Shown here one piece after another: positions 4,439 through 61,934 of a stretch of 64,000 nt of DNA. The DNA comes from an uncultured Acidimicrobiia bacterium (GTDB lineage: Bacteria > Acidobacteriota > Terriglobia > Versatilivoradales > Versatilivoraceae). The notes beneath the pieces are model-generated. The model was not told the DNA's origin. It searched no databases and saw only the letters and a program-made list of their open reading frames with translations. The first letter of the stretch is position 1. Every line of letters begins with the position of its first letter. Made by a program: the position numbers and the translations under genes. The stretch spans positions 9,133 to 73,132 of the forward strand of contig CAVVYL010000060.1 in assembly GCA_963752385.1 (NCBI GenBank), read 5' to 3'.

Positions 4439-4716
4439 ATCGGTTCTCCCTTAGCCTTGTCATCCGCAAAGTGAAACAAGGAACTACCCTGGACTTTCGA
4501 GATTGCTTCCCTGCGATTCCGCGCCCCAGGGAAGTTGCCCCAACTGGCAGATAAGAGTATCTGCGCACGCCGGCACGCTCGCCGACTTAGAAAGGTTCGG
4601 AGGCAAGTTCCTGGTGACGTACACATGGCCGGTTCGTCATGTGTACGAGACAGAACGCAGACATCGCCAGTACAACGCGATGTCTGCGCGACCAATGATC
4701 ACCTGACAGAGTAATA

Positions 4717-9663: not shown

Positions 9664-9717
9664 GGCGTCTCCAAGACTCGCCACGTGGCAGACCGTCGCG
9701 AGTGGAAGGGATTCTTC

Positions 9718-10392: not shown

Positions 10393-10438
10393 CCGTTCGC
10401 ATTGCGGTCGTCGCTTCAACTTGGATTTGCGGGGCTCT

Positions 10439-12154: not shown

Positions 12155-12158
12155 GGGC

Positions 12159-13652: not shown

Positions 13653-13774
13653 TCCACTAGGTGGCGACGAAGTTCACAATTCGGTCAAGTTTGTAGTCCC
13701 GCCTTCAGCCGGCCCTGGTCATCGCCGCCTGAAGGCGAAGGAGCCCTTGCTCCGTGAACCAGGAGAGGAATGAT

Positions 13775-14791
13775 ATGCAGGTTGCCGTGATTCAAGCGCC
13801 CCGTCAGATGCAACTGGAATCCTGGACAATACCCCAGCCCGGGCAGGGCGAGGTTTTGGTTTCAGTGCGAGCCGTCGGGGTCTGTGCTGGGGACCTGTAC
13901 ATTTATCAAGGGAAAAATCCTTATGCCAGCTATCCCGCCGTCGGAGGGCATGAGATCGCCGGCGTGATCGCAAGGGTTGGGGCCGGTGTCGCGGGTTTCG
14001 AGCCTGCGGAGCGTGTTGTCGTCGAACCGTTCATAGGTTGCGGGACCTGCTATCCGTGCCGGGTGGGCAAGTCCAATTGCTGCGCAAGGCTTGAGATCAT
14101 CGGTGTCCACCGGCCGGGAGGGTTCGCTGAATTCCTGACCGTACCCGCGCACAATCTTCATCGGATTCCCGACGGGCTTTCTTTCTCCATGGCCAGTTTT
14201 GCCGAGCCTGTGGCCATCGGTGTCCAGGCCTGCCGTCGAGGACAAGTGGCGAAGGGTGAATACGTGCTCATCCTGGGGTGTGGGCCAATTGGCCTGGCTC
14301 TCGTCGAAGTGGCAAGACAACGAGGCGCCCGGGTTGTTGCCACTGACATCCGGCCTTCTCGGCTCGAGATCGCCAAGCAGCTCGGAGCAGAGACGCTTGT
14401 GGCAGACGACCACTTGTTGTCCAGGGTCCTTGATCAGACCAACGGAGAGGGAGCCCCGGTGGTGATCGAGGCGACGGGAGACAGCAAAGCCATCGAGCTG
14501 ACGGTAGAGCTGGTTGCCGCCGGAGGGAGGATCGTGATTGTCGGGCTCATCAAAAGAGGCATCGGCGTGACTTTCCAGGGTCTGGATTTCACGCGCAAAG
14601 AGATGACCATTGTGGGATCCCGAGCGTCGGTGAGCTGTTTTCCTGAATCGCTGGAGCTTCTGGCGAGTGGGGCAGTCCAGTATCCGAAGGTGGCGACCGA
14701 GTTTACTCTTTCGGAGGCGCCCCGGGTGCTGGCTCAGATGGCCCAAGATCCAGCAGCGGTCCACAAGAGTCTGTTGGTCGTGGAGACTTGA
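13775..14791 (+). CDS. zinc-dependent alcohol/polyol dehydrogenase (MDR family)
   Basis: GHEIAG…, structural-Zn Cys cluster CGTCYPCRVGKSNCC and GCGPIGL Rossmann motif. The ATG at 13775 is preceded by AGGAGAGG. Confidence 0.75.
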   Translation: MQVAVIQAPRQMQLESWTIPQPGQGEVLVSVRAVGVCAGDLYIYQGKNPYASYPAVGGHEIAGVIARVGAGVAGFEPAERVVVEPFIGCGTCYPCRVGKSNCCARLEIIGVHRPGGFAEFLTVPAHNLHRIPDGLSFSMASFAEPVAIGVQACRRGQVAKGEYVLILGCGPIGLALVEVARQRGARVVATDIRPSRLEIAKQLGAETLVADDHLLSRVLDQTNGEGAPVVIEATGDSKAIELTVELVAAGGRIVIVGLIKRGIGVTFQGLDFTRKEMTIVGSRASVSCFPESLELLASGAVQYPKVATEFTLSEAPRVLAQMAQDPAAVHKSLLVVET

Positions 14792-14886
14792 ATGTGGGGG
14801 GAGCCGGCCGTCGTCTGATTGATCTGAAGGTCCAGATCGACGCCGGTGTTCTTTCGCAGTTTCCTATAGGGCTGAACAGGTGAACT

Positions 14887-15636
14887 ATGTTGAAGGCGGT
14901 TTCACGAGATCTAACTTTGGTGGACCAAGCTCTGAACCAGCTCGAGGGCTTAATCCTGGACGGAAGTTATGCACCTGGCAATCGTCTTCCTTCCGAAAAA
15001 GAGATGTCTTTGAAGCTCGGGGTCAGTCGTTCGGTGGTTCGAGAGGCCATCCATAGTCTGATCGCGAAAGGGCTGGTTGAGACGCGCACGGGGTCGGGGA
15101 TTTATGTTCGCGACCTGGGTTCACACCTCGTTACGGAGCCGATCAATCTGTTGCTTCGGTCACGCTGGTTCAACACGGACGAGATTCTGGAAGTCCGGGA
15201 GGTTCTCGAAATCAAAATTGCAGGCTTGGCGGCAGAGCGCGCCCAGGCCCGCGACCTCGAAGACTTGCAGGCGACCATTGATGCCCTCGGCAATCCAAAA
15301 CTGGCCCCGGCGGAGTACGCCCAAATCGACGTCGCGTTTCACAATCGCCTGGCGGCAGCGGCGGGCAATCCGTTATTTACGGTACTCGCGAACTCAATTA
15401 ACGACGTCATGATCAATATCCGGTTGCGAGCATTCAGGGTTGACGGCCCCTTGGTCGTGGAGCGCTCAGCCTTCTATCACGGGCACATCCTCGAGAAGGT
15501 ACGCGCACATGACGTCGAAGGTGCCCGCCGTGCCATGGAAGAGCATCTGGCCGAGGCTCGGGACACGTTACGTCGAGCGGATGCCACTTTTGTCAGAACC
15601 GCACGGCAGGTTGAACTGGAAAGGCCCAGCAATTGA
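14887..15636 (+). CDS. GntR-family transcriptional regulator (FadR/FCD subfamily)
   Basis: N-terminal wHTH …LPSEKEMSLKLGVSRSVVREAIHSLIAKGLVETRTGSGIYV… plus an all-helical FCD-like C-terminus. Confidence 0.75.
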   Translation: MLKAVSRDLTLVDQALNQLEGLILDGSYAPGNRLPSEKEMSLKLGVSRSVVREAIHSLIAKGLVETRTGSGIYVRDLGSHLVTEPINLLLRSRWFNTDEILEVREVLEIKIAGLAAERAQARDLEDLQATIDALGNPKLAPAEYAQIDVAFHNRLAAAAGNPLFTVLANSINDVMINIRLRAFRVDGPLVVERSAFYHGHILEKVRAHDVEGARRAMEEHLAEARDTLRRADATFVRTARQVELERPSN

Positions 15637-15677
15637 GCGAGGGTGCCATGTAGCGAGCAACCTCACTGCCGAGGGAA

Positions 15678-17297
15678 ATGGTATTGAAAGCGCCAAAGGA
15701 CGCCGGTCCGGGCTTTTCAGCCAAGAAAGGAATTGGGGGTATGTTTGATTTGAATATCCACACGGCTCGCCTGATGGCCGCGACGACAGTTCTCCAGCCT
15801 CGAATAACCAAGCCTTCCGTTGGGGCAACAGTTCTTGCCTTGTTCCTCTATTTCAGTCTCGGGATCGGCCAACTGGTTGCCGCCGAACCATTGAAGTTGC
15901 ATCCTGAGAATCCGCACTACTTTCTCTTTCGAGGAAAGCCGACCGTACTGATTACTTCCGCAGAACACTACGGAGCTGTGCTCAACCTGGATTTCGATTA
16001 CATCCGGTATTTGGACGAACTTCAGGCGAAGGGCTTGAACCTGACCAGGATCTGGCCCGGGGGCCCATACCTGGAGGTTCCCGGTACCTTTGACATCGCC
16101 AAGAACACACTGGCCCCTTTGGCGAACCGTTTCAGTTGCATCTGGCAGCGGAGTTCCTCTCCTGGCTACAAGCGCGGAGGAAACAAGTTCGACCTCACTT
16201 CCTGGAACCAAGCCCATCTCGCGCGGCTAAAGGACTTTGTGGCCCAAGCCGGCAAGCGCGGAGTGGTTGTCGAGTTAAGTCTGTTCTGTCCCTTCTACAC
16301 CGAGGATATGTGGAATGTGAGCCCCTGGAAGGCAAGCAACAACGTCAACGGAGTCGGAAACCTGGCTCGCACAGAGACGTTGACGTTGAAGAATGGTGGC
16401 CTTCTGGCTATTCAAGAGGCCATGGTGCGCAAGATTGTTTCTGAGCTTAAAGACTTTGACAACCTCTACTACGAGATCTGCAATGAGCCCTATGTCGGTG
16501 GTGTCACACTGGATTGGCAACATCACATCGCCGAGACCATTGTGGAGGCAGAATCTGCCTTTGCCCAAAAACACTTGATCGCCCAGAACATTGCGAATGG
16601 TTCGACGCAAATCGAGAATCCCCATTCAGCCGTTTCCATCTTCAACTTTCACTACTCACGGCCGCCGGATAGTGTTCGGATGAACTATGGGCTTAACCGA
16701 GTGATTGGCCTTAATGAGACAGGCTTCGACGGTCCTGCCGATGCGACCTATCGCATCCAGGGATGGGACTTCATCCTGGCAGGCGGAGCGCTCTACAACA
16801 ATTTGGACTACTCCTTCACGGTGGAACATCCCGACGGGACATTTGTGCCAGATCCAAAAACGCCCGGCGGAGGGAGCCCGGCTTTGCGTAGTCAGCTGAA
16901 GGTTCTCAAAGATTTAATTCACAGCGTCGATTTCATCAGGATGGCTCCTCGCGACTCTGTCGTCAAAGGAGTATTCCCAGCGGGTGCCACGGCTCGGGCC
17001 CTGGCCGATCAAGGCAAGGCCTATGCCATTTATGTTCATCATGGACAGCCCGGGTACGATCACACGAGCACGGGCACGCGGTCGAGACCGCCGTACAAAG
17101 TGGCTCCAGGTCCGCAACAGGTGGAGCTCGTATTGGACGTGCCGAGCGGTTTGTACCAAGCCGAATGGATCAGCACAAAGTCGGGCCATATTGAGAAGAC
17201 CGAGAAATTCAAGAGTACGAGCACACCGCACACCGTGCGCTCTCCCTCCTACTCGGAAGACATCGCGCTTCGCATCAAGCGTCTCGAGGCTGAATGA
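15678..17297 (+). CDS. glycoside hydrolase family 5-like (cellulase superfamily) protein
   Basis: TIM-barrel GH motifs including …LYYEICNEPY… (NEP acid/base motif) and an N-terminal hydrophobic segment. Confidence 0.5.
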   Translation: MVLKAPKDAGPGFSAKKGIGGMFDLNIHTARLMAATTVLQPRITKPSVGATVLALFLYFSLGIGQLVAAEPLKLHPENPHYFLFRGKPTVLITSAEHYGAVLNLDFDYIRYLDELQAKGLNLTRIWPGGPYLEVPGTFDIAKNTLAPLANRFSCIWQRSSSPGYKRGGNKFDLTSWNQAHLARLKDFVAQAGKRGVVVELSLFCPFYTEDMWNVSPWKASNNVNGVGNLARTETLTLKNGGLLAIQEAMVRKIVSELKDFDNLYYEICNEPYVGGVTLDWQHHIAETIVEAESAFAQKHLIAQNIANGSTQIENPHSAVSIFNFHYSRPPDSVRMNYGLNRVIGLNETGFDGPADATYRIQGWDFILAGGALYNNLDYSFTVEHPDGTFVPDPKTPGGGSPALRSQLKVLKDLIHSVDFIRMAPRDSVVKGVFPAGATARALADQGKAYAIYVHHGQPGYDHTSTGTRSRPPYKVAPGPQQVELVLDVPSGLYQAEWISTKSGHIEKTEKFKSTSTPHTVRSPSYSEDIALRIKRLEAE

Positions 17298-17371
17298 AGC
17301 TGTTGAGTTCGACACCGAAGCGGCAAGGACGACGATGCAGCCGTTGAAGCGGCCGAAGCCAAGGAGCAACA

Positions 17372-18340
17372 ATGAAAATCGCTGTAATTGGCGCCGGAGC
17401 AATGGGGAGCGTCATGGGTGGACTGCTAGCCAAAGCGGGAAACCAGGTGACGCTGATTGAGGTCTCGCAGCAAGTTGTCGAAGCCATCAATAGCAGAGGG
17501 TTGCGCCTTGAAGCCAAGTCCGGCGCCACGGAGACCATCCATGTGCCCGCGACCGCTGAGTCCAGCCGCGTGGGCATCGTTGACCTGGTTCTCGTGTTCG
17601 TGAAGTGCTACCACACAGAAGCGGCAGTACACGCGGCATCGCCTCTGATTGGTCCCGACACGATGGTGTTGTCTCTGCAGAATGGTTGGGGTAACGGGCC
17701 AAAGATCAGCGCCATCGTGGGCGAGCAGCGATTGTTGCTGGGAGTGTGTTACCACAGCGCGACTGTTGCAGGACCAGGACACGTCCGGCACGTAGGGCAG
17801 GGTATGACGTTTATCGGAGAGTTGAACGGCAAAATCACTTCCCGGCTGAAACGTATCACCGAGACGTTTGAGAAGGCCGGGATTGAGGTGACCGCCACGC
17901 CTGCTGTCCTCAAGGAGATTTGGTCCAAGCTGGCGCTGAACGCTTGCACGCTGCCGACCTCAGCCCTGCTCCGTTTGTTCTCCCCTCAACTGATTCAACA
18001 CCAGAGCATGCTCGAACTGATGCGTGCCCTGCTGGGAGAGGTTGTCGCGGTTGCCCAGGCCCAACAGATCCCCCTCGACTTCGATGAGCGCTGGGATGTG
18101 ATCACCGGACTGTTGAAGGGCCTGGCGCCAAGTGCCAAGTCTTCTATGTGTCAAGATGTGGAGAAGGGCCGGCAGACCGAGATCGAAGTGATTAACGGCG
18201 CGATCGTGGAGTCGGGTCGGCGGTTGGGCATCGGCACCCCTTACAACGACGTGATGGTGTGGCTGGTGAAAGCATTGGAAGAAACCTTTCAGCAGCCTGG
18301 GTCGCCAGATCTTTCGACGGTGGAGTCCCTGCGCGCTTAA
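17372..18340 (+). CDS. 2-dehydropantoate 2-reductase family (PanE/ApbA) oxidoreductase
   Basis: MKIAVIGAGAMGS Rossmann start and the KLALNA / C-terminal ApbA_C pattern. AAGGAG ribosome-binding site before the ATG at 17372. Confidence 0.7.
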   Translation: MKIAVIGAGAMGSVMGGLLAKAGNQVTLIEVSQQVVEAINSRGLRLEAKSGATETIHVPATAESSRVGIVDLVLVFVKCYHTEAAVHAASPLIGPDTMVLSLQNGWGNGPKISAIVGEQRLLLGVCYHSATVAGPGHVRHVGQGMTFIGELNGKITSRLKRITETFEKAGIEVTATPAVLKEIWSKLALNACTLPTSALLRLFSPQLIQHQSMLELMRALLGEVVAVAQAQQIPLDFDERWDVITGLLKGLAPSAKSSMCQDVEKGRQTEIEVINGAIVESGRRLGIGTPYNDVMVWLVKALEETFQQPGSPDLSTVESLRA

Positions 18341-48985: not shown

Positions 48986-51885
48986 TCACCGGAAGTTCTC
49001 TACCAGCATCAGATCACTGCCCTGCTGATCGATCTGCGAGTACAAGACCCAGCGCTCATCAGGCGAAACAGAAAGGCCAACAGACACCTGCCTTTCTGTC
49101 ATGGCGATCTCCCTGATCTTTCCCGTTTCAAAATCAAAAAACCGGATTGAAGAGCCCACCGAACCTTCTCGTGGGGCACAAAAATAAATGCCCTTATTGC
49201 CGACGGAAAACGTTCGAGTGAATAGAGTCTCGATGAGCCGCACCTCTGGCCCGCCTCCGACAGGAGCTTTCCACAGGCTGCCTACTTGGGTTTTGTCCCC
49301 TTCCTTAGTGTAATAAACAGAGGTTCCGTCTGGCGACTCGAAGCCTTCCACTCCCCCGTCCTGGGTCACCCGGATCGCTTCTCCTCCGTCGGCTGGCATC
49401 TTCCATATTTGATTCTCGCCACTGCGGTTTGAGGTGAAGTAAATCCATTTTCCATCTCGCGACCAGTGCGGAATGGCGTTCTCCGAAGGAGGACTGGTCA
49501 AGCGCTGCGGCTGGCCACCGTTGGCGTTGACGAGATAGACCTCATACTGTCCCTCTTTGTTTGAATCAAAAGCAATCCGCTCCCCATCGGGGGACCAGCG
49601 CGGCGATCCATTCACTGGACCATCAAAAGAAGTCAACGGCACGGCGTTGGAGCCATCGCTGTCGCACACCCAGATCTGATAGCTGCCTGAACGGTCGGAA
49701 GCAAAAGCGATCTTCTTCCCGTCAGGAGAATAGTCAGGATTACCGTCATTTCGTGTGGTGGGGATAAAGTTGACTGGCCGACTGGCTTTTCCATATGGAG
49801 TCGGGACTTCCACACGCCAGATGTTCTCCTGGGTCAGGCGCTGGACGTAAACAAGGCGGTGTCCCTGACGTGAAATGACCGGCGAACGATTATCTTCTCC
49901 TGGAAATACGAGCGGCTCGGGAATCCTGGCTCCAATGAGGGCAATTCTTGAAAGACTGGAACCTACACTCCACCCCAAGTCAGGAGAGGAAGCAAAGACA
50001 AGCGCTTGGCCATCTGGGGTCCAGGTAGCCGAGCTGACGCCAGCAGGGGGCAACTGTTCGGGCTCCCCCACTGGTTCCAGATTGCCAGAATGAGAGAGCA
50101 GATGGAGATTGGCTGTGCCAGCCCAGCTGACGATCCGAATGAAAGCTAGCGTGCCACTCTTCGGTGAAAATGCGGGATTGATATCACCGATCGATTTCGG
50201 TGTAGGGAAGGTTAGCCTCCGCTTCTCACGGGTGCCCAGTGAGAGGGAGAACAGGCTGAAGGGTTCGGCCGCGGAAGGCTTGTCGACGATGACAAGCGAA
50301 CTGCCGTCGGCGGACCAGGCCAGATAAGTGCTGAATGGATTGACACCACAGGTCAGCGAAGGCGAATGTTTGAATTTCAGTCAGTTTGGAGGCAGCCCCT
50401 CCCAGGGCCGACATCAACATCACAGTCGCCTTCCCTCCTGGAAGCCTCTGAAGGAAAGCGATTTGCCGACCGTCCGGCGACCAGGCAGGGCTAAACTCGG
50501 CAGCCGGATCACGGGTGAGACGCAGCGGCTCCGAGGAACCAATCAATTTGACGTAGATATCGAAGTTGTCGCTCTGGTCCTTATTCGCTACGAAGGCCAC
50601 CTGGTTGCCGTCCGGTGAAAAGGCAGGAGCTGTTTCAAAACCCGGATAACTGGTCAAGGGAACGGGCCTTAGAGGAGTCTGTGGCACTTGGGTAGTAGTT
50701 CGGCCGAACCAGATGGCAGTGGCTCCAATCCCTAAAATAACCAACAACAGAGTGATCCACTTCAGACTTTGGTGATGCCTGCTGTGGTGTAATCATTGGG
50801 ACTTCCCCGCTGGAGTCCAGTTCCTCCCTCAGCTCCAACAGGTTTATCTTGACGTCACCCAAGCTCTGCCAGCGACGTTCACGATCCTTGCGCAAGCATC
50901 GGTCAATGGTCCTTTCGAGGTCTTTGGGAACGCCCTTGACGACTTCACTGGCCGGCTTGGGCTCCTCACGCAAGATCGCTGTCAATATCGCCAGATTCGA
51001 CTCGCCCGTAAACACCTTCTGCCCTGTGACCATCTCATAAAGCACCGCCCCAAAGCTGAAGATGTCACTCCGGGCATCAACCTTTTTTCCTTCTGCCTGC
51101 TCCGGCGACATGTAAGCTGCCGTCCCAACAATCGTCCCTTCTTCCGTCTCGAGCTGCGCCGTGCGCGTCTCCTCTTCGTCACCCGCGACTTCAGTCAGTT
51201 TGGCCAGACCGAAGTCCAGTACCTTCACCAGGCCCTCATCAGTCACCATTACATTGGTCGGCTTCAGGTCGCGATGGATGATCCCGCCTGAATGAGCTTT
51301 GGCCAGGGCGTCGGCCATCTGGACAGCGAGCTTGAGCGTCTCATTCAGTGGCAGTCCCTTACGCGGGATCAACTGATTCAGCGTCTTGCCCGCAACATAC
51401 TCCATCACGACGAAGTCAATGCCGCCTTCGCGTCCGACATCGTGAATCGTGATAATGTTGGGATGGTTCAGTGCCGACGCTGCCCGAGCTTCCTGAATGA
51501 ATCGCCGCTTGCGTTCTGGGTCGCTCACCTGCTCTGCCGGCAATACCTTGATGGCTACAAACCGCTGTAGCCGCGTATCGCGTGCCTTGTAGACGACGCC
51601 CATCCCGCCGGTCCCCAGCAGAGAGAGGATCTGGTAAGAGCCGATCCGTTGCCCTATTAGCGACTGGGGTTCTTCTTGCGCAAACGTCTTCGTCCCTACC
51701 TCTAGGGCCGGTTCCTCCATGAATCGGTCCGCGCTCTGTTCAGACCGGAGCAGAGACTCCACTTCTTGACGCAGAGCTTCGTCGCCAGCGCAAGCCTTCT
51801 CCAGGAATGCGGCCCGCTCGTTCTCTGCCAGCTCAAGGGCTGAGTGACAAACCTTTTCAATCTGTCGCCAACGTTCAGGAGTCAT
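48986..51885 (-). pseudogene. Ser/Thr protein kinase fused to TolB-like/WD40 beta-propeller repeats, interrupted by at least two frameshifts
   Basis: ORF 50635..51885 has an N-terminal helical leader plus full kinase catalytic domain (…VAIKVL…, HRDLKPTNVMV, DFGLAK, …SPEQ…). ORFs 50226..50747 and 48986..50071 in two other frames carry TolB-like repeats (…FSPDGNQVAFV…, …YSPDGKKIAFASDRSG…QIW…). The arrangement is collinear with a roughly 960-aa kinase-TolB protein. Confidence 0.65.
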
Positions 51886-52033: not shown

Positions 52034-52154
52034 AGTATACCACTGGCTTGGTCCGAGTGCGTAGCTGACTCACGATTGGGTAAGGGAGTTCAGTACGCTG
52101 AGGAGGACAGAATGGGTGTGTGCTTAACGGGAGGGATCACTTGGACGGTTGACG

Positions 52155-52240
52155 GGCTAACCGGAAACTGACCGCGATGAAGGCTTGAGTGGCTGGATTA
52201 CTTCCGGATAGCCGACTATACGACCACTGGACTGGATCGA
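52155..52240. repeat. copy C of the about 40-bp repeat, preceded by an inverted partial copy forming a potential hairpin
   Basis: ggctaaccggaaac … (36 nt) … acttccggatagccgactatacgaccactgg. The two arms are about 11/14 complementary. Confidence 0.35.
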
Positions 52241-52870
52241 CACTCCGGCTCCAGGTGGGATCTACTGTCGAGAGGACCAGGATCAGCTCATGAGGGGAGA
52301 AGGCTCCCTCCTGGCGGGAAAGCCCTCAGCCTGAATGAGCGGAAAAAAGGATTGCTGTTTCAACGTGTATCGAAAACCGCTGCGAATTTATCCTGCGTGT
52401 TGCGGAGCGACACAGTAACACGGAGAGCGCGCTGGTGAGTCTTGTTCGCGCTGTTAATTAAATGAATCTGGCTTGTAAACCGGCCTTCTGCCCATCTGTT
52501 CAATAGATAATAGTGTATCCCCCATCAGGTCGCGAAAAAGCCGCTCGAAAACTCCAGGCTGAGAGATCAGCGACACCACCATTCTCTCCAGTGGGCTTCG
52601 CATCTTTTTCCCGAGACGGCAAGTCACACGGTGAAAATGCGCAGGGGCTGGGTCGCGACGGGTGAAGGAGTAACGATCTGCAGCTCTGGCAAAAGAGCAC
52701 GAAGCTATGGCAGCGAACGTCAAGCAACTGAAATGGCAAGCCAACGCCATTCAATCCTCGTGTAGGGCGAGGCGGAAATTATTCATTTCTTACAGTAAGT
52801 TAGCGCTGATGCGCGAAAACGCCAACTTTGCTCTCGTTTTCTCAACTCACACCGCTCACCCCAGCCCTAG

Positions 52871-53507: not shown

Positions 53508-54350
53508 CTACTCGATTTCCAGAATCTTCAACGTATCCCGGAAAAACATCTGTTCCATCATCTCCATGTTGAGTCTGGGCAAGGCGCTCCCGGAAAGCAT
53601 GTCGTTCAGCTTGCGCATCCCCTCAAGGCTGGCGTCAACCGTGGTAAACGGATAATCGCTCCCGAACAGAAGTTTGTTCCAGACTCCGTATTCCTGAAGC
53701 AGCATCAACGAATGATAGAGCTGGAAAGGCCGGTAATGGAGGGCCGAACAATCCGCGTACACATTCGGATGCTTGCGAATGGTGACGACGCACTCGCCTT
53801 CATAGGGATGGGAGAGATGAGCCATGATGATCTTCACCTCAGGAAACCGAATGGCGACGTCGTCAACCAGGCGGGGAAGGGTACATTCCAGCGGGGCCTT
53901 GTCCACAAACGTTGTCCCGGTGTGAAGCAGAACCGGCAACCGGTGTCGAGTAGCGTATTCCCACAAATAGTCCAACGTGCGCTCGTTGGGCTTGAAGCCG
54001 GCATACATGGGAAGAAGCTTGATTCCCTTCATCCTCAGGTCCTGGTGCCCCTGAATCAATTCCTCCTGCCAACCCGGTTGAGTGGGATCGACACAGAGAA
54101 AGGGGACGAGGTTATCTGGATGCTCGTGTACGTACGCAGCGACGTCGGCGTCGGGGACCCATAGTCCCGATAACCTGGCTTTGCCGCCAAAGACGATGGT
54201 CTTGCCGCACTTTGAAGCGGCGGCGTGATACTCCTCCCAGCGCACCGTCAGATCCACTTCGGTACTTCGCGCGCGGCGCGCCTGTTCCCGAAAGCCGTCG
54301 GTGAAGTGTTCGGGATATTTGAAGTAATGGCTATGAACGTCGACGAGCAT
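53508..54350 (-). CDS. amidohydrolase-2 family (TIM-barrel metal-dependent hydrolase)
   Basis: MLVDVHSHYF… (HxH metal motif), …LLHTG…, …IIMAHLSHPY…, …FGSDYPF…. ATG at 54350 inside a GTG-started ORF. Confidence 0.6.
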   Translation of the reverse strand: MLVDVHSHYFKYPEHFTDGFREQARRARSTEVDLTVRWEEYHAAASKCGKTIVFGGKARLSGLWVPDADVAAYVHEHPDNLVPFLCVDPTQPGWQEELIQGHQDLRMKGIKLLPMYAGFKPNERTLDYLWEYATRHRLPVLLHTGTTFVDKAPLECTLPRLVDDVAIRFPEVKIIMAHLSHPYEGECVVTIRKHPNVYADCSALHYRPFQLYHSLMLLQEYGVWNKLLFGSDYPFTTVDASLEGMRKLNDMLSGSALPRLNMEMMEQMFFRDTLKILEIE

Positions 54351-54410
54351 ATTGATCAGTATCGATGACTCAATTCTTTGAGTCACCCGGAAGGCCCAAA
54401 AAATCGTTCA

Positions 54411-55175
54411 TCAACTTTGCCCCGGTGCTAAAGCGGCTTTCATCTGTGAGAGCGCCAGCTCGTTTACTTTTCTTGCCTGCTCGATTTGCTCCAGGATCAG
54501 CTTCCTCTTGAGGCCGTCTTCTTCCTGCTGTCTGGTGAGCACATACATCTCTAAGCTGCTGCCACCCTGACGCAACTTGTCTCTCAGGTCAATTCGCTTC
54601 TGTGCCTTCTCGTCGAGTTGCTCCAGATCCGCCAGTGCCTTGTCGCGTATCCTGGCGCTATCTTTCAACAAGATCAAACTTGCGAGAGAAAGCCGATCGC
54701 TCGCGGAAAGAGCTGGGTCGATCATCAACTCTTTGATCTCGCTTCGTACCTCCGGAGATAACCGGACTAACGCTTGTGGGGCCGTCACTAGCGCTCGGAC
54801 TGATTCAACTAACCGCTTTACCCCCACATCGAAACTGGTCGCCAGGTCGATCCGCTGCAACCCTATCAACTGATACACCATGTCTTTGGGAACGACGGTC
54901 CGTCGGATTTCGACGGGTAGGACCGGTTTGTTGGCTTCCTGCGCAATGTCGAGTTCCTTCCGCACGTTGTCCGATGCAGCGGCATTGGGTGAGAGGGCAA
55001 CCAAAACGACGTCGGCAGCTTCGATAGCATCGACGATTTGCCTACGCCACTTGGCGCCGCCCAGGATGTCTTCACGATCGATCCAAACTGCGACCGCTGC
55101 GGCCTCAAGCTCCCGGACCAGCCTCTCAATAATCTGCGTGTCCTGTCGTGAATAGCTTATGAACACATGTCCCAT
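54411..55175 (-). CDS. TIR-domain protein with C-terminal coiled-coil region
   Basis: N-terminal …VFISYSRQD… and …VLVALSPNAAASDNVRKELDIAQ… (the SxN…S…EL motif with the conserved Glu). The C-terminal 120 aa are heptad-like and charged. ATG 55175, alternative TTG 55187. Confidence 0.65.
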   Translation of the reverse strand: MGHVFISYSRQDTQIIERLVRELEAAAVAVWIDREDILGGAKWRRQIVDAIEAADVVLVALSPNAAASDNVRKELDIAQEANKPVLPVEIRRTVVPKDMVYQLIGLQRIDLATSFDVGVKRLVESVRALVTAPQALVRLSPEVRSEIKELMIDPALSASDRLSLASLILLKDSARIRDKALADLEQLDEKAQKRIDLRDKLRQGGSSLEMYVLTRQQEEDGLKRKLILEQIEQARKVNELALSQMKAALAPGQS

Positions 55176-55363
55176 TCCGGTCTCCAATCAATGCTGGAAG
55201 ACTTGACGACTCCGGTTCAGCCTGCCCGCATTTTTAGGCAGGGCGGCTGCAACAGGCGGGCTAGCCCGTCCTGTTAAGTGGGCCGCAAGCAAGTCGCAGC
55301 AGTCGCAAGGGCCTTAAGTCCAGGTTCAACAGAGTGTGATCGAGTGGGATACGACGGCAAGAC

Positions 55364-56017
55364 TCACTGCCGCTCATAGAACGGGGGCGGCTCGATGCCC
55401 AAAGCGCGCAGGTAGACATACCCTTGGCCGCGATGATGGATCTCGTTGTCGATGACGTAGAAGAGTAGATCGTAGACCCGCCCCTCGTACTGACCGAAGG
55501 CTGTGGTTGTCTCCTGGAAGCGTTGCCGCGGGATCTGCCGCCAGAGGGCATCGATCTGTTTCGTGCTCTCATCCCAGAGCCGAAGAATCTCCTCCCGCGG
55601 CCGGGGCTCGCGAGTTATGGACTGATCCCAATCTCCAGTGACGATACCACGGATCATGGGCAGGGCCATGCTGAGCATCTCAAGGGCCAAGGCTCCGAAA
55701 GGGCGCATGGAGCCCACGGAGAAGGTGAAGAGCCGATCCTCAGGGAAGGCTTCGATCACGCGGCGAGTCAACCGGCGGTGGCCCTGCCAATGTTCCAGCA
55801 GGGCTTCGGGAGTGATGACCACTGCGGCCATCAGGGATCTACTGGCGCCTGTGGCAGTGGCGACTGCCGTGCTGGCAGCCTTTTTGGCTTGCTTGGCAAT
55901 ACCGGGCGTCGAACGCTTCCTGCCGGTCTTCTTCTTAGCTGTGCTCTTTTTGCTCGTGGCACGAGAAGACACCGATATTTTGGACGCAGACTTCTTACCT
56001 CCTCTTTTTGCTGGCAT
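55364..56017 (-). CDS. DinB/YfiT-like (DinB_2) family protein with Lys-rich histone-H1-like N-terminal tail
   Basis: N-terminal 70 aa are KKSASK…KKKTGRK…AKQAKKAAS. C-domain …EIHHRGQGYVYLRALG… is DinB_2-like. Confidence 0.5.
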   Translation of the reverse strand: MPAKRGGKKSASKISVSSRATSKKSTAKKKTGRKRSTPGIAKQAKKAASTAVATATGASRSLMAAVVITPEALLEHWQGHRRLTRRVIEAFPEDRLFTFSVGSMRPFGALALEMLSMALPMIRGIVTGDWDQSITREPRPREEILRLWDESTKQIDALWRQIPRQRFQETTTAFGQYEGRVYDLLFYVIDNEIHHRGQGYVYLRALGIEPPPFYERQ

Positions 56018-56348
56018 TCTTTTGCTCCTTCCGCTGGATCATCAATTGACTTTTCCGATGTCAAGGACCTTACTCTACCATACCCGTGCCATAAGGGAAG
56101 TGGCCCCACCGGCCCTTTTTCGCGCTTCCGGTTGAGCACTGGGTGATGCGGCGAATTCACCACGAAATCGTTCCAATAGATCGTACAAATCCTCGTCCGA
56201 GATAGGCGACAGAGCCTAGCAAGACTCTCATAGGCCAGCCTTCCCCGTTCCGTAGTTACTTCGTTTCCTTGTTTCGGGCTTGCCATAAGGGACGGGCGGG
56301 CATCTTTGCTCCGCTTTCCGCAGTTCGAGGTTGGATTTTACACCATGA

Positions 56349-58712
56349 TCACTGGCTGACCGGCTTCGGCTTGGCGAGGTGCTCGATCAGTTCGAGCACT
56401 GCACGGGCAGCCTTCTTGGCTGCCGGTTGGCCGCGCGCGATGTACGGGTCGAGGACGAACCGCGTCGTGTCGGAGACCGAGCTCCACTGCGTCCCTCCTT
56501 GCGATCGCTTGAAGACGTCACGGAACGATCGTTCGATGGCCGGTAGGTCCTTCGGCAGGGTGTTGCGCGCCACGGCCTCGTACAGGCGCAGCTCCGGCTC
56601 GGCGACCAGGCTCCAGAAGTCCGGGCTGGACTGGTTCTTCCCCCGGACACTGCGCCGCGCCTCTTCGAACAGTTCCGGAGGCAGACCTTTCCATTTCGCC
56701 GTCCCGGCGCGCAGAACGAGCTCCGCGGCAATCAGATTGATGGCCGGGTAAAACAGATCAGCGGCGTCGCGCTTGCGGCCGATCTCCAGCGCGCGCTGGT
56801 AGTGCGCCGCCATGGCCTCGACCGCGTGTCGTGCAGCTTCGGGGCGCCCGACGCCCGCTTCGAGCATCGCGAGGCGTTTCATCGCGGAGCCACGAAGGCT
56901 TTCGCGTTCCGAAGTGTTCCGAAACGCCGTCAACTGCTTGAAGACCTTCATCTCGTCCTTGATGGTCGTGCGAGCTGATGCCATGGCGACGCGTAGCTTC
57001 GCGCTGGCGGCAGCGCGCTGTCGCGCCACGGTCGGGCCGCCGGAGGCGCGGCGCCTGCGCCCGCCATCGTCTGCCGGGGCGGCCGCCAGCCGCTCGCGCT
57101 TCGACTGCGCCTCCTGAACGGCGTTCCACGCGTGCCGGATCCGCAGGTTGCTCAGCTGCTCGAGAATTCGGAACGAGACGTCTCCCTCCGCGTGCTCGAT
57201 CGCGGTTTCGTACCAGCGAATGGTGCTGGGCACGTCGTCTGCGGCGCTGTAGGCACGCGCGAAGAGCTCAGCCACCTCGCTCGCGTCCCAGCGCATCTTC
57301 TGCCACCGTTGCTCGAGCCGCCGCACGCGCTCGAGCTGATACGCCGCGTCGTATCCCTGAAACGTGGACTGCACCACCAAGGTCTCGAGGGCCAGCTGCA
57401 GCGCGGGTACCGACCCCACGTCCTCGAACTCGTCATCGGGCGCCTGCGGTGTCTTGCTCCAGCCGCCCCGGCCCCCGAACGTCCAATCGGGATCGCCGTA
57501 ACACTGATAGGCCGCCCACGTGTTGCCGTCGAACTCGAATGCCTTGGCGCGCGCCTCAGCCACGGCGTCGATGAGTCGCTGGCCTCTGAGCAGCGCGTCG
57601 TAGAACGTGGTCGCGAACGCGCTCGCGGCCTGATCGTCCACGGCCCAGCCGGCGGCGACGACGCACCGAACACCGATTTCGATGAGCGCTTGAGCGACGC
57701 TCGACGCAAACGCCGCGCGGTCGTACAGGCCGCGTTGCGAGGGACGGAGCAGGGAGCTGCGCGAGCCGGCCGCCAGGTGGCAGCAATTGACGAACACGAG
57801 CTCCGGCACGACGCGCATCGCCTTGATTTCGTTGGCGCCGAGGAAGGTGTCGTTCGACAACACCACGCCGCCACGGTTTCCTTTCCTGCTCAGCGGCTCG
57901 CCGTGCCCGGCGACGTGAACCACCCGCCAATTCCGCTCGAACAACGCATCCACGACCTGGCGGGCGTCGGGTCCGTCCTGGAGCTGACCCCCGGCAAACA
58001 AGTCCTTCACGCAGTCGCGATCGAGCCCCGGATTGGACGTGAGGAGACCGAAGACGTCCTTGGCCTCCTGCAGCGCGCCGGGCAGCGGCGGATACTCGGG
58101 CGGGCAGCGCGGCTCGCCAATCACGAGGATCGAAGCCTGCGCATCGGCGTCCGTGACCTGTGGGCGGAAAGTCTCGGTCCTGTACTTCCGGAGCAGCTTC
58201 GATCGAATCGCCCATGGTGGCCGCGGCGCCTGCGTCGCAACCGCGTCGTCGAGCAGCTCCCAGGGAATGCCGGCCGTGCCCTCATCCACTTCGATCTGAG
58301 TCTCACCCGAGCCGGCGAGAAAAGCCTCCAGCTCGATCGGAACCAGCAGGTTGTAGAGCGTGCGGCCGATCTGTGCCTCGGTATTCGGCTCGCTCGAAGC
58401 CGTCGCCACGAGATCGCGTAACAGCCGCGGCTGCGTCGCTTGAGCTCGTACTTCGGTGCGCGCGCGCTTGGTGTCGAGCGCGTACGCAATGAACGTGTTG
58501 CCGTTCACGTCTCGACGGGTTTCCGCCGTGATGAAGTCGTACTCAACGCCGCGATACCCCGACTCGAGTGGTCGTCGCAGCGATCCCGTCCCGGCCACAA
58601 TGGGCTCCGCGACACGGTAGCGAGACGGTGTCGCTTTGGCCTGCATCTTCAGCGCTTCCCACGCTTCGGTGGCGCGGCTCAAATACAACTCGATGAAGCG
58701 GAGCTCGCGCAC
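56349..58712 (-). CDS. CHAT-domain (caspase-fold) peptidase with C-terminal helical/TPR-like region; probably the C-terminal part of one larger frameshifted gene
   Basis: …GIPWELLDD…, His-Cys dyad context …VVHVAGHGEP… and …ELVFVNCCHLAAG…. The reading frame stays open upstream of the annotated GTG start into 58543..60798. Very high GC. Confidence 0.65.
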   Translation of the reverse strand: MRELRFIELYLSRATEAWEALKMQAKATPSRYRVAEPIVAGTGSLRRPLESGYRGVEYDFITAETRRDVNGNTFIAYALDTKRARTEVRAQATQPRLLRDLVATASSEPNTEAQIGRTLYNLLVPIELEAFLAGSGETQIEVDEGTAGIPWELLDDAVATQAPRPPWAIRSKLLRKYRTETFRPQVTDADAQASILVIGEPRCPPEYPPLPGALQEAKDVFGLLTSNPGLDRDCVKDLFAGGQLQDGPDARQVVDALFERNWRVVHVAGHGEPLSRKGNRGGVVLSNDTFLGANEIKAMRVVPELVFVNCCHLAAGSRSSLLRPSQRGLYDRAAFASSVAQALIEIGVRCVVAAGWAVDDQAASAFATTFYDALLRGQRLIDAVAEARAKAFEFDGNTWAAYQCYGDPDWTFGGRGGWSKTPQAPDDEFEDVGSVPALQLALETLVVQSTFQGYDAAYQLERVRRLEQRWQKMRWDASEVAELFARAYSAADDVPSTIRWYETAIEHAEGDVSFRILEQLSNLRIRHAWNAVQEAQSKRERLAAAPADDGGRRRRASGGPTVARQRAAASAKLRVAMASARTTIKDEMKVFKQLTAFRNTSERESLRGSAMKRLAMLEAGVGRPEAARHAVEAMAAHYQRALEIGRKRDAADLFYPAINLIAAELVLRAGTAKWKGLPPELFEEARRSVRGKNQSSPDFWSLVAEPELRLYEAVARNTLPKDLPAIERSFRDVFKRSQGGTQWSSVSDTTRFVLDPYIARGQPAAKKAARAVLELIEHLAKPKPVSQ

Positions 58713-60798
58713 CTCCGGCAGGCGCTGGCGCGCCGAGGCTCGACGAATCAGCTCGTTGGCTTCGTAGCACGCCTTGTGCGATGAGCTGCGCAGCCTGACC
58801 GGGCGTCACGCCGGTACCGCCGCTGGACAGCAGCGTGGTCGCCAGCCGCAGCGGCGCGATGGGGCCGCCCCCCTTCTCGGCCACCCGCTCGGCCCAGGCA
58901 ATCACCGCCTGCCGCACCGTAAGAACGATGTGCGCCGACTGCAGCTTGCCTTCCTGACCAAGGCCGATGACGATCACCGCTTCTGGGCGTGGCGCCGGCC
59001 AGAACTTGCCCTTCGGAATTTGACGATTGATGAAGATGCGATGCGTACCCGGCTCGACCGGGTACACGCCGAGGTCGAGCGCATTGGTCATCGCGCGATC
59101 GAGCAACCGGTCGACGACCTTTTCGGTTCCAGTGAGACGGGTCGCGCGGTAGTGCCCAACCAGCAGCGGACGCTCTTCGAAGGTCAGATCGCCGTTGATG
59201 ACGGTGATTCCAAGTTTCGCCTCGGGCTCAGCCGCGACCGCCCGTGCGGCCCGACCCGTAAACCGCGCTCGCTTGGCCGCGACCGGTCTCCCTCCGGCGA
59301 TGGCCGGCACTGACACTCCGGCCGCACCCGCGCGGAGCAGACGCCGATCGGGCAATTGCTGGGCGGGATCGAGCGGCGCCAGCTTCTGCGCCTGGTCGTT
59401 GAGCGCCGCGACGAGAAACGCCACGGTCTCCGGCTGCGCGAAGAAGTTGACGTGGGTGACGTCGTCGCGGTCGATGTTGCCCCCTGGCCCGAAGCACCCG
59501 ATGCGCGATCCCGGGATGAACGTGCCGCCCGACGGGTCGACGCGCCATCCCCCTTCCGACGGCACCACAAGATCGTTGGCCGTGTTGAAGAACTGATCGA
59601 TGCCCATATCGAGCAGACGCTCAAGCACGGTGCTGCCGGGGTTGTAGTTGGCAGCCAACACGGAGTACCGGTCCGCGGGCGGGCCGGGCGGAGACTGGAG
59701 CTCGCGGATCAGATCGCCGTCCCCATCCATGGAGTGAATGCCCGGCAGGTCGCCCGACGCATGACGCGCGATCCACACGAGACCGTGCGCCACGAACTCG
59801 GCGCCGGTCGTGAACGGGTTCTCAGGAAACAGCTCGAGCAGATTGGCGACCCACCCGACCGTGTCCTCCCACCGCGACGGCGTGGCGAGCGGCGTGCCTT
59901 CATTGGGCGCTGCGACGATGATGGCGCGGCCGAGCGTGAAGCGGGACGCCAGCGCGCCGAACGCGTCCCGCCGCTCGACGAGGTTCCGCAATACCAGCCC
60001 GCCGCGGGAATGTGTGATGACGTCGAAGGTGAAAGCCTTGTCCGGCAGCTCCTTCAGGAGCATCCGGACGTTTTCTTCCGGCGTGCGGCTGATGGAAAAG
60101 TGATCGAACGCGAAGATGCGGTCGCCGTACAGCGGCGCCACTTCCTCGAAGAAGTTCGATTTCGCCAGCGAAGCGAACGCGCCGGAGGCGTTCGAAAAGG
60201 TGCCGTGCACGAGAAGCAGGGACCGCTCCGTGGAAGACGGCTTGCCAGCGTCGAGTCGGCCACCTACGAGCCCCCCCTTCGTGACCTTGAGCCAGCCTTC
60301 TTTGAGTCCCTTGGACTTCCAGACGGCCGTTTCGAAGGCCAGAGCGAGCTTCGACAGCACAAACCCCACGGCGGCGTCGAGGGCGGCGCCTGCGACCTTG
60401 ACGATTACGGCCTTGATGGCCTTGCTGACCACTCCGCGGCTGGTCGTGAGATCGCTCCCCCCGAGGTCCGGCCGAATGGGCGCGATGAATCGCACTTCGA
60501 CCGGCCCGCCGCGGGTGCGGCTGGTTGTCGTGCGTGGCGCATGAAAGGTCAGTGCTCCAGAGGCATGGCGCAGGGCGAGCACGGCAGATTCGCCCGGCGA
60601 TAACTCGTAGGTGATGTCGAGCGCGCTCGGTGCAGCGGCGGCGCCGCGGACGGCGGGCCGAGCTTGCGCGACGAACTCCTCTGTGCTCTTCGCTTGAGTG
60701 AGGAACTCAGGCGGCAGGCTCGGAATACCGGCCCCCAGCCCGCGGGTCGTTGCGGCTGGTTGGATGTTCCAACCGGGAGAATTCAGTTTGATCGCCAT
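58543..60798 (-). CDS. alpha/beta-hydrolase (lipase/esterase-like, PGAP1/DUF676-type) protein; its 3' end (about 58543-58790) looks out of frame and continues in frame with the CHAT ORF
   Basis: ATG 60798 with GAGGAG ribosome-binding site. …LLLVHGTFSNASGAF… and …FDVITHSRGGLV… (GxSxG nucleophile elbow). The last roughly 80 codons are Arg/Ala/Gly-rich nonsense, typical of an off-frame high-GC read. Confidence 0.55.
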   Translation of the reverse strand: MAIKLNSPGWNIQPAATTRGLGAGIPSLPPEFLTQAKSTEEFVAQARPAVRGAAAAPSALDITYELSPGESAVLALRHASGALTFHAPRTTTSRTRGGPVEVRFIAPIRPDLGGSDLTTSRGVVSKAIKAVIVKVAGAALDAAVGFVLSKLALAFETAVWKSKGLKEGWLKVTKGGLVGGRLDAGKPSSTERSLLLVHGTFSNASGAFASLAKSNFFEEVAPLYGDRIFAFDHFSISRTPEENVRMLLKELPDKAFTFDVITHSRGGLVLRNLVERRDAFGALASRFTLGRAIIVAAPNEGTPLATPSRWEDTVGWVANLLELFPENPFTTGAEFVAHGLVWIARHASGDLPGIHSMDGDGDLIRELQSPPGPPADRYSVLAANYNPGSTVLERLLDMGIDQFFNTANDLVVPSEGGWRVDPSGGTFIPGSRIGCFGPGGNIDRDDVTHVNFFAQPETVAFLVAALNDQAQKLAPLDPAQQLPDRRLLRAGAAGVSVPAIAGGRPVAAKRARFTGRAARAVAAEPEAKLGITVINGDLTFEERPLLVGHYRATRLTGTEKVVDRLLDRAMTNALDLGVYPVEPGTHRIFINRQIPKGKFWPAPRPEAVIVIGLGQEGKLQSAHIVLTVRQAVIAWAERVAEKGGGPIAPLRLATTLLSSGGTGVTPGQAAQLIAQGVLRSQRADSSSLGAPAPAGGARAPLHRVVFEPRHRSVGSAEDAGQSDTVSLPCRGAHCGRDGIAATTTRVGVSRR

Positions 60799-60911: not shown

Positions 60912-61934
60912 CTAGCCAGCTTCGGGGACCGGCCACCATCCCGCGAGGCCCATTGTGGCCCACGCGGTACCGACGTAGACGATTGGTTTGAGATCACGGG
61001 CAGGGCCCGGTCCCGGTGGCTCGGCGGATCGTGAAGTCATCTGCCACGATCCGTCCAGCTGCTGTGTGTCGACAAGGAACCTGGTTGCGCGCCGGACAGC
61101 TTCGGCGACACCGGTATCTCTCGATCCCCTCAAGACATAGAGGGCTTGGCCGGTGGCAAAGGCGTCGCTCTTCATGTTCGGCGTTTGGCTCCAGCCTCCC
61201 GCTGCATCTTGTTCGCGCAATAGAGCCGCCACCAGCTGTTTCTTCTGGTCGGAAGCCCCACCCAGCTTCGAGAGCACCATTAGGCGCATAGTTAATGATT
61301 GGTGGTTTGTATCGGACCCGGACCCCATGCGAGTGAGCCACTGCACGGCTTTGTCACGCTGGATCTTCCATCGGTCTACTTCACCTTTCTTGGGAGACGT
61401 CGCGAGGGCCAAATAAAACCAACTCGTCTGGACATCGATTGAGCCGTGAACAGGCGGACGACCACCCTTGTTGGCGTTCCACGAGCCATCTGCCATTTGC
61501 TGAGTCACCACGCGATCCAGCAACGTCTGCTGTACCTTCTCAGTCCAAGAGTCGCCGATTCCCGATCCCATGATCGCGAGAGCCATATTGAGCGGACCAA
61601 GGTAGTCGGGTTCACTTCGTTCCTTATCCAATGGCAAATCGGGGAACACCTTGGCCAGATTACCGTCCAACGCCCAGGATGTAGCCTGGTTGATAGCCTC
61701 CACGTTCACCGGATAGCCGCACTTTCTTCCTTCGCCCAGACCCCAAACCATGAGGGGGATGTGGTGGCAGGAGGCACACTGCTGCTTTTTCATCCACGCC
61801 AGACCTTCCTTTTCCAAAAAGGCAAGGCCACGTTCCACCGACTGGCGCACCTGAAGAGACGAGGAGCTGTCTGAAGGCGAGCTTGCCAGCGAGACACTCG
61901 CGACCACTGTGATGAGAAGCTGCGAAAAATGCAT
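60912..61934 (-). CDS. secreted protein with CxxCH motif and prenyltransferase/squalene-oxidase-like (terpenoid-cyclase QW) repeats
   Basis: Signal peptide, CASCH, and repeated Q..DGSW motifs (QQMADGSW, QDAAGGW, QQLDGSW). Confidence 0.5.
   Translation of the reverse strand: MHFSQLLITVVASVSLASSPSDSSSSLQVRQSVERGLAFLEKEGLAWMKKQQCASCHHIPLMVWGLGEGRKCGYPVNVEAINQATSWALDGNLAKVFPDLPLDKERSEPDYLGPLNMALAIMGSGIGDSWTEKVQQTLLDRVVTQQMADGSWNANKGGRPPVHGSIDVQTSWFYLALATSPKKGEVDRWKIQRDKAVQWLTRMGSGSDTNHQSLTMRLMVLSKLGGASDQKKQLVAALLREQDAAGGWSQTPNMKSDAFATGQALYVLRGSRDTGVAEAVRRATRFLVDTQQLDGSWQMTSRSAEPPGPGPARDLKPIVYVGTAWATMGLAGWWPVPEAG

Follow-up and report, generated by a model that had tools for sequence, protein, structure and literature searches.

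A TIR gene and a frameshifted lipase-CHAT gene as probable dispensable conflict genes in a plastic patch of an acidobacterial-type chromosome

The locus at positions 53508-60798 of a 64,000-nucleotide stretch of contig CAVVYL010000060.1 (the window), from an uncultured bacterium assigned to Acidobacteriota by GTDB, contains a TIR gene, a DinB gene, an amidohydrolase gene and a giant gene that encodes an α/β-hydrolase and a CHAT caspase-like protease in one polypeptide. Comparison with close relatives favours, with moderate confidence, the view that the TIR gene and the giant gene are dispensable conflict genes, flanking an ordinary DinB gene in a plastic patch of an acidobacterial-type chromosome. 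About as much confidence can be placed in considering the window's giant gene a decaying remnant, as it lacks a Peptidase_C14 (C14) partner and a frameshift separates its Macro-fold from its CHAT domain. The window holds a solo, frameshifted effector copy of foreign composition, a rare small TIR that may act alone, and housekeeping genes between and beside them. Adjacent co-directional conflict domains need not make a system, and a few near-identical genomes suffice to part backbone from accessory genes.

Backbone and dispensable genes in close relatives

Five syntenic close relatives, with 90-97% nucleotide identity, were compared with the window. They share the gene order DinB(169), GNAT, EamA, SQHop-like, [giant gene], DinB(217), [TIR], Amidohydro_2, OsmC. 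The DinB, Amidohydro_2 and OsmC genes are in place in all five, with or without TIR or CHAT. The state of the two variable genes is as follows.

Window: giant gene with a +1 frameshift at 58767; TIR intact
L001 (L088 alike): giant gene intact; TIR deleted over window 54501-55275 (775 bp), last ~90 nt of the open reading frame (ORF) left
L084: window 56133-60609 deleted (4,477 bp), giant gene's first ~190 nt left; TIR intact, 99% identical
L101: giant gene intact; TIR with a +1 frameshift
L102 (indel-prone assembly): three other single-base indels in the giant gene; one in TIR

The gene remnants indicate that TIR and the giant gene were both ancestral at the locus and were lost repeatedly, and the comparison of near-identical genomes shows the speed of conflict-gene loss. 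The deletion junction in L084 displays 3 bp of microhomology. In the same relative, the first ~63 codons of the giant gene are fused in frame, via the former intergenic region, to DinB, which creates a chimeric ORF of 316 amino acids (aa) at L084 8833-9783.

The genes of the window's locus are arranged as follows.

53508-54386, minus strand: amidohydrolase gene (Pfam Amidohydro_2, E 4e-28)
54411-55187, minus strand: TIR ORF (Pfam TIR_2, E 5e-25)
54411-55175, minus strand: TIR protein of 254 aa, from the ATG at 55175 (Pfam and PADLOC)
55364-56017, minus strand: DinB gene (Pfam, E 8e-18)
56349-58712, minus strand: ORF with CHAT (E 1.5e-29) and TPR-S (31.6 bits, cut-off 27.6)
58543-60798, minus strand: ORF with the DUF7379 α/β-hydrolase (E 2e-42)
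56349-60798, minus strand: giant gene, ~1,483 aa, with β-domain, α/β-hydrolase (DUF7379), Macro-fold, CHAT and TPR-S (homologue and DNA alignments)
~63,7xx-64000: partial DinB gene at the window edge

A preliminary description, made from the sequence alone, had listed five consecutive minus-strand genes here. The strand and the coordinates are borne out; the number is four, the two big ORFs being one gene. The TIR, CHAT and lipase-like domains that it named were all confirmed by Pfam where it had placed them, and the further DinB-family gene that it saw at the window edge is the partial gene listed last.

Co-directional as these ORFs are, their original interpretation as one conflict/defence island did not survive the comparison, since the backbone genes persist without TIR or CHAT and do not accompany CHAT homologues elsewhere. 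The conflict character attributed to the genes applies to TIR and hydrolase-CHAT, and not to the amidohydrolase and DinB. That the amidohydrolase, TIR, DinB and hydrolase-CHAT genes would form one new multi-gene defence system is thus extremely improbable, even though the genes point in one direction, only 24 bp separate the TIR stop codon from the amidohydrolase start, and one further CHAT homologue (P0014 context) has a DinB gene just downstream. The DinB, amidohydrolase and OsmC genes are unchanged in relatives lacking TIR or CHAT, and none of ~95 other CHAT loci has a DinB or amidohydrolase gene of the types seen in the window beside its giant gene. Strong purifying selection acts on the amidohydrolase as a backbone gene (ratio of nonsynonymous to synonymous substitution rates, dN/dS, 0-0.16). 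It has no PADLOC match, and PADLOC names no system at the locus.

DinB was also considered as a system component in its own right and was rejected: its family is abundant, its extension is clade-specific, and it is not found near other CHAT loci. The core belongs to a housekeeping-type family of ~160 aa with at least 8,000 members at 75-85% identity. The preliminary description had it as a protein with a 70-aa Lys-rich tail, inserted between the conflict genes; the Lys/Ser/Ala-rich segment is instead an N-terminal extension of ~62 aa (residues 1-62, window 55832-56017; 13 K, 5 R), on a protein that is part of the conserved backbone. This extension is confined to the three or four nearest clusters (P0153-P0155 and L001) and varies there by in-frame indels. 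Since these indels keep the frame and P0155 has no internal Met, the extension is probably translated. Similar Lys/Arg/Ser/Ala-rich stretches occur in C14 proteins encoded near giant-gene homologues, at the N-terminus in L082 (5641-6654) and, in L100, after a lysozyme-like N-domain just before the caspase domain; an uncharacterized 375-aa neighbour in L100 begins with one as well (L100 5775-7424 and 12070-13197). Such basic N-terminal stretches may reflect a habit of the Acidobacteriota lineage rather than a histone-like function.

The giant gene is the sole compositional outlier among the locus genes compared, with a GC content of 67% (81% at third codon positions, GC3) in a window of 58%. 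The preliminary description had rightly noticed this much higher GC. It had also described the TIR gene as lower in GC, which is not the case relative to its neighbours: TIR (55%, GC3 63.5%) is close to the amidohydrolase (54.7%, GC3 68.9%) and OsmC (55.1%) genes. Judged from this composition (67% vs 58% GC), a high-GC donor probably passed the giant gene on by horizontal transfer. The suggested check for a phage or mobile-element context yielded no tRNA, repeat or phage signature: no tRNA and no Rfam family were detected, flanking direct or inverted repeats did not exceed chance, and no phage homologues were found. Promoter and terminator signals did not rise above the shuffled expectation.

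The patch around TIR and the giant gene shows general erosion. The SQHop-like gene (window 60912-61934) is mostly deleted in L101 and fragmented in L102. On the other side, ~0.4 kb is left of a BNR_2-like gene (window 52146-52660; deletion junction at 52608), which encodes 423 aa in L001. Beyond ~52150-52400, the downstream neighbours differ in every relative (HisKA/response regulator in L001, epimerase and pentose-phosphate genes in L084 and L102, a kinase in the window), and this region is a recombination/plasticity hot spot. The SQHop-like gene itself encodes a ‘squalene cyclase-like’ α/α-toroid that begins with a signal-like segment and contains a CxxCH motif (QCASCHH).

The giant gene and its broken frame

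The two largest ORFs (58543-60798 and 56349-58712) overlap by 170 nt in different frames. In a three-frame translation, the hydrolase frame runs straight into the CHAT frame, passing from ...AQGV to YEAN.... When the window is aligned with the intact gene of L001 (96% identical), a single additional C becomes visible at 58767 (GTG-C-TAC, minus strand), between the Macro-fold and CHAT domains, from which it follows that the ‘hydrolase-CHAT gene’ is a single frameshifted gene. The extra C is private to the window: it is missing from L001, L101, L102 and L087-L089, and the gene is intact in L001, L101 and L087-L089. With the repaired 1,482-aa query, hundreds of full-length homologues of 1,457-1,530 aa are obtained, 51-96% identical, and the repaired protein has 702 clusters at E ≤ 1e-10.

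Whether this frameshift is a true lesion bears directly on the decay of the window's copy. It could be an assembly error, and an explanation to which we give appreciable, though minority, weight holds that it is a sequencing or assembly artefact, or that the split is tolerated as two polypeptides, with the giant gene functional as a solo effector. Several points speak for this and weigh against a decaying remnant: the lesion is a single-base indel private to one assembly, every catalytic residue is intact, and a hydrolase and a caspase are naturally encoded apart in related systems. There are also other suspicious single-base breaks in the window, in a kinase gene divided over three ORFs and in the EamA 3' end, which has a 1-nt deletion. 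A genuine frameshift is favoured by the position of the extra C outside any homopolymer, by its being the only frame-breaking difference across 4.45 kb relative to two short-read assemblies, by the true loss of the same gene by deletion in relatives, and by a downstream GTG without good ribosome-binding context.

The kinase gene, which combines Pkinase with a PD40 β-propeller (window 48986-51885, minus strand), is split into the ORFs 50635-51885, 50226-50747 and 48986-50071. This implies two more frameshifts, by pseudogenisation or by assembly indels, and bears on the trust in the frameshift at 58767. At the EamA 3' end (~62100), the window is short of one base that is present in L001, L084, L101 and L102. 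The deletion lies ~10 codons before the stop and gives 295 aa instead of 299 aa.

The dN/dS of the giant gene (0.13-0.23) indicates purifying selection. The window's frameshifted copy was considered as a candidate for relaxed selection, as its private changes have a nonsynonymous:synonymous-type ratio of 20:26 vs 32:100 in relatives (p = 0.02). The effect is gone once the changes are stratified by gene half (17:22 vs 13:25, p = 0.49), and this candidate was rejected. The apparent nonsynonymous excess arises because the window's private changes cluster in the 3' half and those of L001 in the 5' half. The comparison of private changes with relatives thus gives no robust sign of relaxed selection, a further point in favour of an artefact or a tolerated split. 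Of 46 codon changes private to the window, 39 fall 3' of codon 677, and of 106 private to L001, 83 fall 5' of it. This uneven distribution suggests allelic recombination, and the gene is probably a mosaic.

The giant protein is composed of the following parts, all on the minus strand.

60391-60798: β-rich N-terminal domain, residues 1-136 (AlphaFold2 model mec2aebae0860)
Residues 148-162, after the β-rich domain: hydrophobic helix (same model, mec2aebae0860)
59389-60231: α/β-hydrolase (lipase/esterase-like), DUF7379 (Pfam and lipase-like fold)
58768-59211: Macro-fold domain, residues ~530-677 (second structure model, pLDDT 83.6)
57492-58370: CHAT caspase-like protease (Pfam PF12770, E 1.5e-29; invariant columns)
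56727-57032: TPR-S within the helical C-terminal region (Pfam PF20308, 31.6 bits vs cut-off 27.6)

The AlphaFold2 model and the invariant columns were built on 63 homologues. The β-rich domain has no family match in Pfam. The hydrolase triad is formed by Ser264 (THSRGG), Asp409 (ANDLVVP) and His449 (VTHVNFF), and the CHAT catalytic residues, intact in the window, are His965 (HVAGHGE) and Cys1005/1006 (VNCCHLA). All are invariant in the 63 homologues. About half of the giant-protein homologues have this TPR-S family on record, and in the giant protein it sits C-terminal to CHAT, fused to an enzymatic effector, as in the TPR-S effector class.

The Macro-fold domain was recognized by structure. 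Its matches are the macro-like N-domain of leucine aminopeptidase (14.0), the DarG macrodomain (10.8), MACROD2 (9.0), Af1521 (8.7) and the Thoeris ThsA macro domain (5.0). Invariant NGD, GHY and SGGxG motifs lie, by inspection, at topologically equivalent loops. In distant plasmid homologues, the similarity starts exactly at this domain (residue ~525 onward), which indicates that Macro-fold and CHAT form the conserved core. TPR-S, perhaps together with the Macro-fold domain, is predicted to be the likely receptor of a TIR-made NAD+-derived signal, and the Macro-fold domain would suggest a second ADP-ribose-type sensor beside TPR-S. Two observations weigh against such a role: the top structural match, the leucine-aminopeptidase N-domain, is no ADP-ribose binder, and at the sequence level a Macro domain was found neither in Pfam (E ≤ 10) nor by a profile search of PDB sequences, so that the modelled fold is what identifies residues ~530-677 as Macro.

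The TIR protein and its relation to the giant gene

The window's TIR protein consists of a TIR domain (54807-55166, minus strand), with the conserved Glu in RKEL, and a C-terminal helical domain of ~125 aa (54411-54806, minus strand). Full-length homologues make up only ~11 clusters, and in a set of 1.84 billion proteins the C-terminal domain matches just 7 representative clusters, which all share this architecture. The orthologues whose context was recovered (L085 and L086, 77-79% identical) have FRG/DUF1801 genes or a patch of toxin-antitoxin and transposase genes for neighbours, and no CHAT gene. With the TIRs that are linked to CHAT, the window's protein shares 25-38% identity, in the TIR domain alone. 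The ThsB_TIR model matches at 26.8 bits (cut-off 21.2), the PADLOC ThsB models match weakly, and the NCBIfam model for Thoeris type III ThcB4 reaches 39 bits vs a cut-off of 220.

By analogy, this protein is most likely a stand-alone NADase/sensor with SpbK-like logic, or an orphan signal generator. In SpbK, a TIR NADase that works alone, a small helical domain serves as the sensor (PMC12847820). SpbK resembles the window's TIR in its size of ~260 aa, in its one TIR and one small helical domain, and in that no dedicated effector gene need be encoded with it (PMC12847820). It differs in the reversed domain order, the TIR domain being N-terminal in the window, and no similarity extends outside the TIR domain.

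The window's TIR is therefore probably not the dedicated partner of the giant gene. The opposite explanation, that TIR and the giant gene are an ancestral Thoeris-like signal-effector pair with DinB merely between them, costly enough for each lineage to have disabled one part, seems doubtful to us. It accounts for the observation that weighs most against two independently dispensable genes: each reliably called lineage retains exactly one of them intact, TIR in the window and L084, CHAT in L001 and L101, after four different inactivating events. Such a one-of-two pattern fits a cognate pair better than independence, which is suggestive; it rests on four lineages, and the call for the window is a single-base indel. 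The remnants, a TIR 3' end in L001 and L088 and a CHAT 5' end in L084, make both genes ancestral, as a pair would be. TIR genes are also enriched within 5 kb of family members, and the distance of 1.2 kb between TIR and the giant gene, with DinB in between, falls in the 1-5 kb range typical of acidobacterial relatives.

The protein families point the other way. The TIR orthologues at 77-79% identity occur without CHAT, and the C-terminal domain comes from a tiny family that was not seen beside CHAT. The gaps of 180-330 bp around DinB, together with this unrelated gene in between, argue against an operon, and the general erosion of the patch, with its BNR_2 and SQHop-like deletions and a downstream synteny that differs in every relative, also weighs against a pair. 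We thus retain, at the strength stated at the outset, the reading of two separately dispensable genes. If they did form a pair, the reciprocal TIR/effector knock-outs in near-identical soil acidobacterial genomes would record selection against an active pair.

The giant-gene family and its comparison with known systems

The giant-gene family has at least 546 GTDB loci. It ranges over Acidobacteriota, Vicinamibacterales, Burkholderiales, Cyanobium and plasmids, with members found on plasmids and beside transposases, and cultured carriers exist (Variovorax sp. J22P240 and Hydrogenophaga taeniospiralis). The neighbourhoods of 79 GTDB loci and of metagenome contigs were sampled, and partners were counted on the 62 well-flanked loci. 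A Peptidase_C14 gene (~300 aa), the steadiest partner of the family, lies within 5 kb at 38/62 loci, usually <2 kb upstream of the giant gene. In Acidobacteria it is adjacent, divergent or convergent, and sometimes fused to a lysozyme-like N-domain (L100, L011); it is divergent upstream for P0004, P0006, P0009, P0014 and P0021. The C14 density per 100 kb falls ~40-fold, from 7.0 within 5 kb to 0.16 at 5-10 kb. A TIR-domain ORF is present within 5 kb at 27/62 loci, the density falling ~6-fold over the same distances (from 5.5 to 0.97 per 100 kb); TIR genes gather around this CHAT family at a rate far above chance. About 19 of the TIR genes are directly downstream on the same strand, typically encoding TIR-TPR proteins of ~600 aa. 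The gene-neighbourhood analysis that the preliminary description had proposed was therefore positive for TIR, and for C14, near the CHAT family, and negative for the amidohydrolase and for DinB; the recovered orthologues of the window's own TIR lie away from CHAT. No C14 homologue is encoded anywhere in the 64-kb window.

Some loci are particularly dense in such genes. P0009 is flanked by two TIR_2 genes, and on a Rhizobium plasmid a distant homologue has a TIR gene on either side. In L100 (ENA ERZ25039531 contig_40824, 2409-17565), a conflict island surrounds a 70%-identical giant-gene homologue, with LSDAT_prok, CAP12-PCTIR TIR, lysozyme-like-C14, the giant gene, the 375-aa gene mentioned above, TPR-S beside a patatin phospholipase, and a double-TIR. 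The Burkholderiales loci follow the order C14, Amidase_2/SH3_3 (a PGRP-like peptidoglycan amidase), giant gene, TIR (L059 7417-9331, L053, L052, L042 and others), and the giant gene is longer at its N-terminus (~1,870 aa). The Amidase_2 and lysozyme-like domains near C14 hint at a possible involvement of peptidoglycan fragments. A recurrent ORF of ~640 aa downstream of the Burkholderiales copies was discarded, having no Pfam match and being probably a spurious high-GC ORF. In L062 (10714-16449), the giant gene and a weak TIR match (E 1.5e-4) share one stop-to-stop ORF of 1,912 aa, which could be a natural effector-TIR fusion or could stem from a lost stop or a frameshift.

We infer signal binding, a proteolytic cascade and a role in defence for this family, in a pathway of TIR, TPR-S, Macro-fold, CHAT-lipase and C14 that would be Thoeris-like. 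In complete systems, the TIR protein would sense the invader and make an ADP-ribose-derived messenger. This messenger would bind TPR-S and/or the Macro-fold domain and switch on the CHAT protease. CHAT would in turn activate the lipase-like hydrolase and/or cleave the adjacent C14 pro-caspase, and the resulting cell death or growth arrest would abort the infection. It is conceivable, and we propose it only tentatively, that the family is in this way an undescribed three-step Thoeris-like cascade, with a TIR messenger, its reading through TPR-S/Macro by a lipase-CHAT protein of 1,500-1,900 aa, and the switching on of a C14 caspase. A count that tells against it is that ~40% of the family loci have neither C14 nor TIR nearby; the giant protein may accordingly work alone.

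CHAT proteins include developmental regulators. This, the ~40% of loci without TIR and C14, and the purifying selection on the giant gene would also suit a regulated housekeeping or developmental protease-lipase (HetF-like CHAT or membrane remodelling), its proximity to TIR and C14 reflecting shared regulation. Such a function is improbable for a gene that is patchily present among near-identical genomes, is an outlier in GC, has plasmid-borne and transposase-adjacent family members, and is found next to TIR, patatin with TPR-S, LSDAT and CAP12-TIR genes.

Among the known systems, none could be assigned directly. PADLOC, which the preliminary description had suggested running, identified no system from the seven locus proteins: its hidden Markov models gave generic TIR-domain matches and one weak CHAT match (SAVED_CHAT, E 2e-5, CHAT part only). 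NCBIfam gave no equivalog assignment. Those seven proteins have no PADLOC or Pfam match to a CD-NTase, as in CBASS, or to the LmuB SMC-like ATPase of Lamassu. No cas genes or SAVED domain were found among the scanned neighbours, at 34-64 kb of the window. Of a Thoeris system, the window has the TIR (ThsB-type) gene, with TIR_2 at E 5e-25. An effector adjoining it as a conserved operon was not found: DinB lies between, L085 and L086 are without effector, and the relatives keep one gene. The examined part of the Supplementary Table of a preprint on TIR systems has no entry for CHAT, PF12770 or PF20308, and no description of the lipase-Macro-fold-CHAT-TPR-S architecture and its C14 partner was found in the literature searched.

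The coupling of a caspase with a hydrolase has a precedent. Kaur et al. 2020 (PMC7159879) report that, in conflict systems, a peptidase of the caspase superfamily always comes together with an α/β-hydrolase. The giant gene resembles the vWA-MoxR (VMAP) ternary systems in this coupling; in contrast to them, it has hydrolase and caspase in one polypeptide, and no vWA, MoxR or VMAP genes were found in its neighbourhood.

Two systems use a caspase-like protease downstream of a signal. In type IV Thoeris, the TIR protein produces N7-cADPR, and this molecule turns on a caspase-like protease (Rousset et al., bioRxiv 10.1101/2024.10.24.620036). The giant-gene family shares with it the TIR and a caspase-fold protease as executioner. 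The type IV effector is, however, a small caspase-like protein on which the signal acts directly, whereas CHAT is embedded in a 1,483-aa protein with putative sensors; the family also usually has a separate C14 gene as partner, and its TIRs come from other subfamilies. The type III-B CRISPR system has a SAVED-CHAT protease that, once activated by its signal, cuts and switches on the C14 ‘PCaspase’ (bioRxiv 10.1101/2023.06.23.546230). As in that system, a sensor-fused CHAT is encoded here beside Peptidase_C14, which suggests that the CHAT of the giant protein cleaves and activates C14. Unlike in that system, there is no CRISPR-Cas and no SAVED; the putative sensor is TPR-S/Macro and the signal source would be TIR rather than Cas10.

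The closest likeness is to systems in which a TIR protein is combined with a TPR-S effector, which were reportedly predicted by Burroughs and Aravind in 2020. Type VIII Thoeris, made of the ThsB TIR and the ThsI CMP-hydrolase-TPR, is a validated TIR/TPR effector system, and the TPR of ThsI is a scaffold predicted to sense TIR signals (bioRxiv 10.64898/2025.12.03.692087). Like these systems, the giant-gene family has an effector enzyme with a C-terminal TPR-S-type sensor, and TIR genes are recurrently adjacent to it (the 27/62 loci given above). It differs from type VIII Thoeris in having a lipase-like hydrolase, Macro-fold and CHAT instead of a CMP hydrolase, and often a third gene, Peptidase_C14. 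The window in turn differs from TPR-S systems: its TIR is non-adjacent, its effector is frameshifted, and its TIR orthologues are unlinked to the effector. The preliminary description had found no match to any named system; this stands for the Thoeris operon, CBASS, Lamassu and CRISPR, and needs correction in so far as the giant gene, by its TPR-S domain and its linkage to TIR, groups with the TIR/NAD+-signal systems that have TPR-S effectors. If the cascade proposed above were true, one widespread family would join TIR signalling, a CHAT-to-caspase cascade and a lipase effector, which have so far been studied apart.

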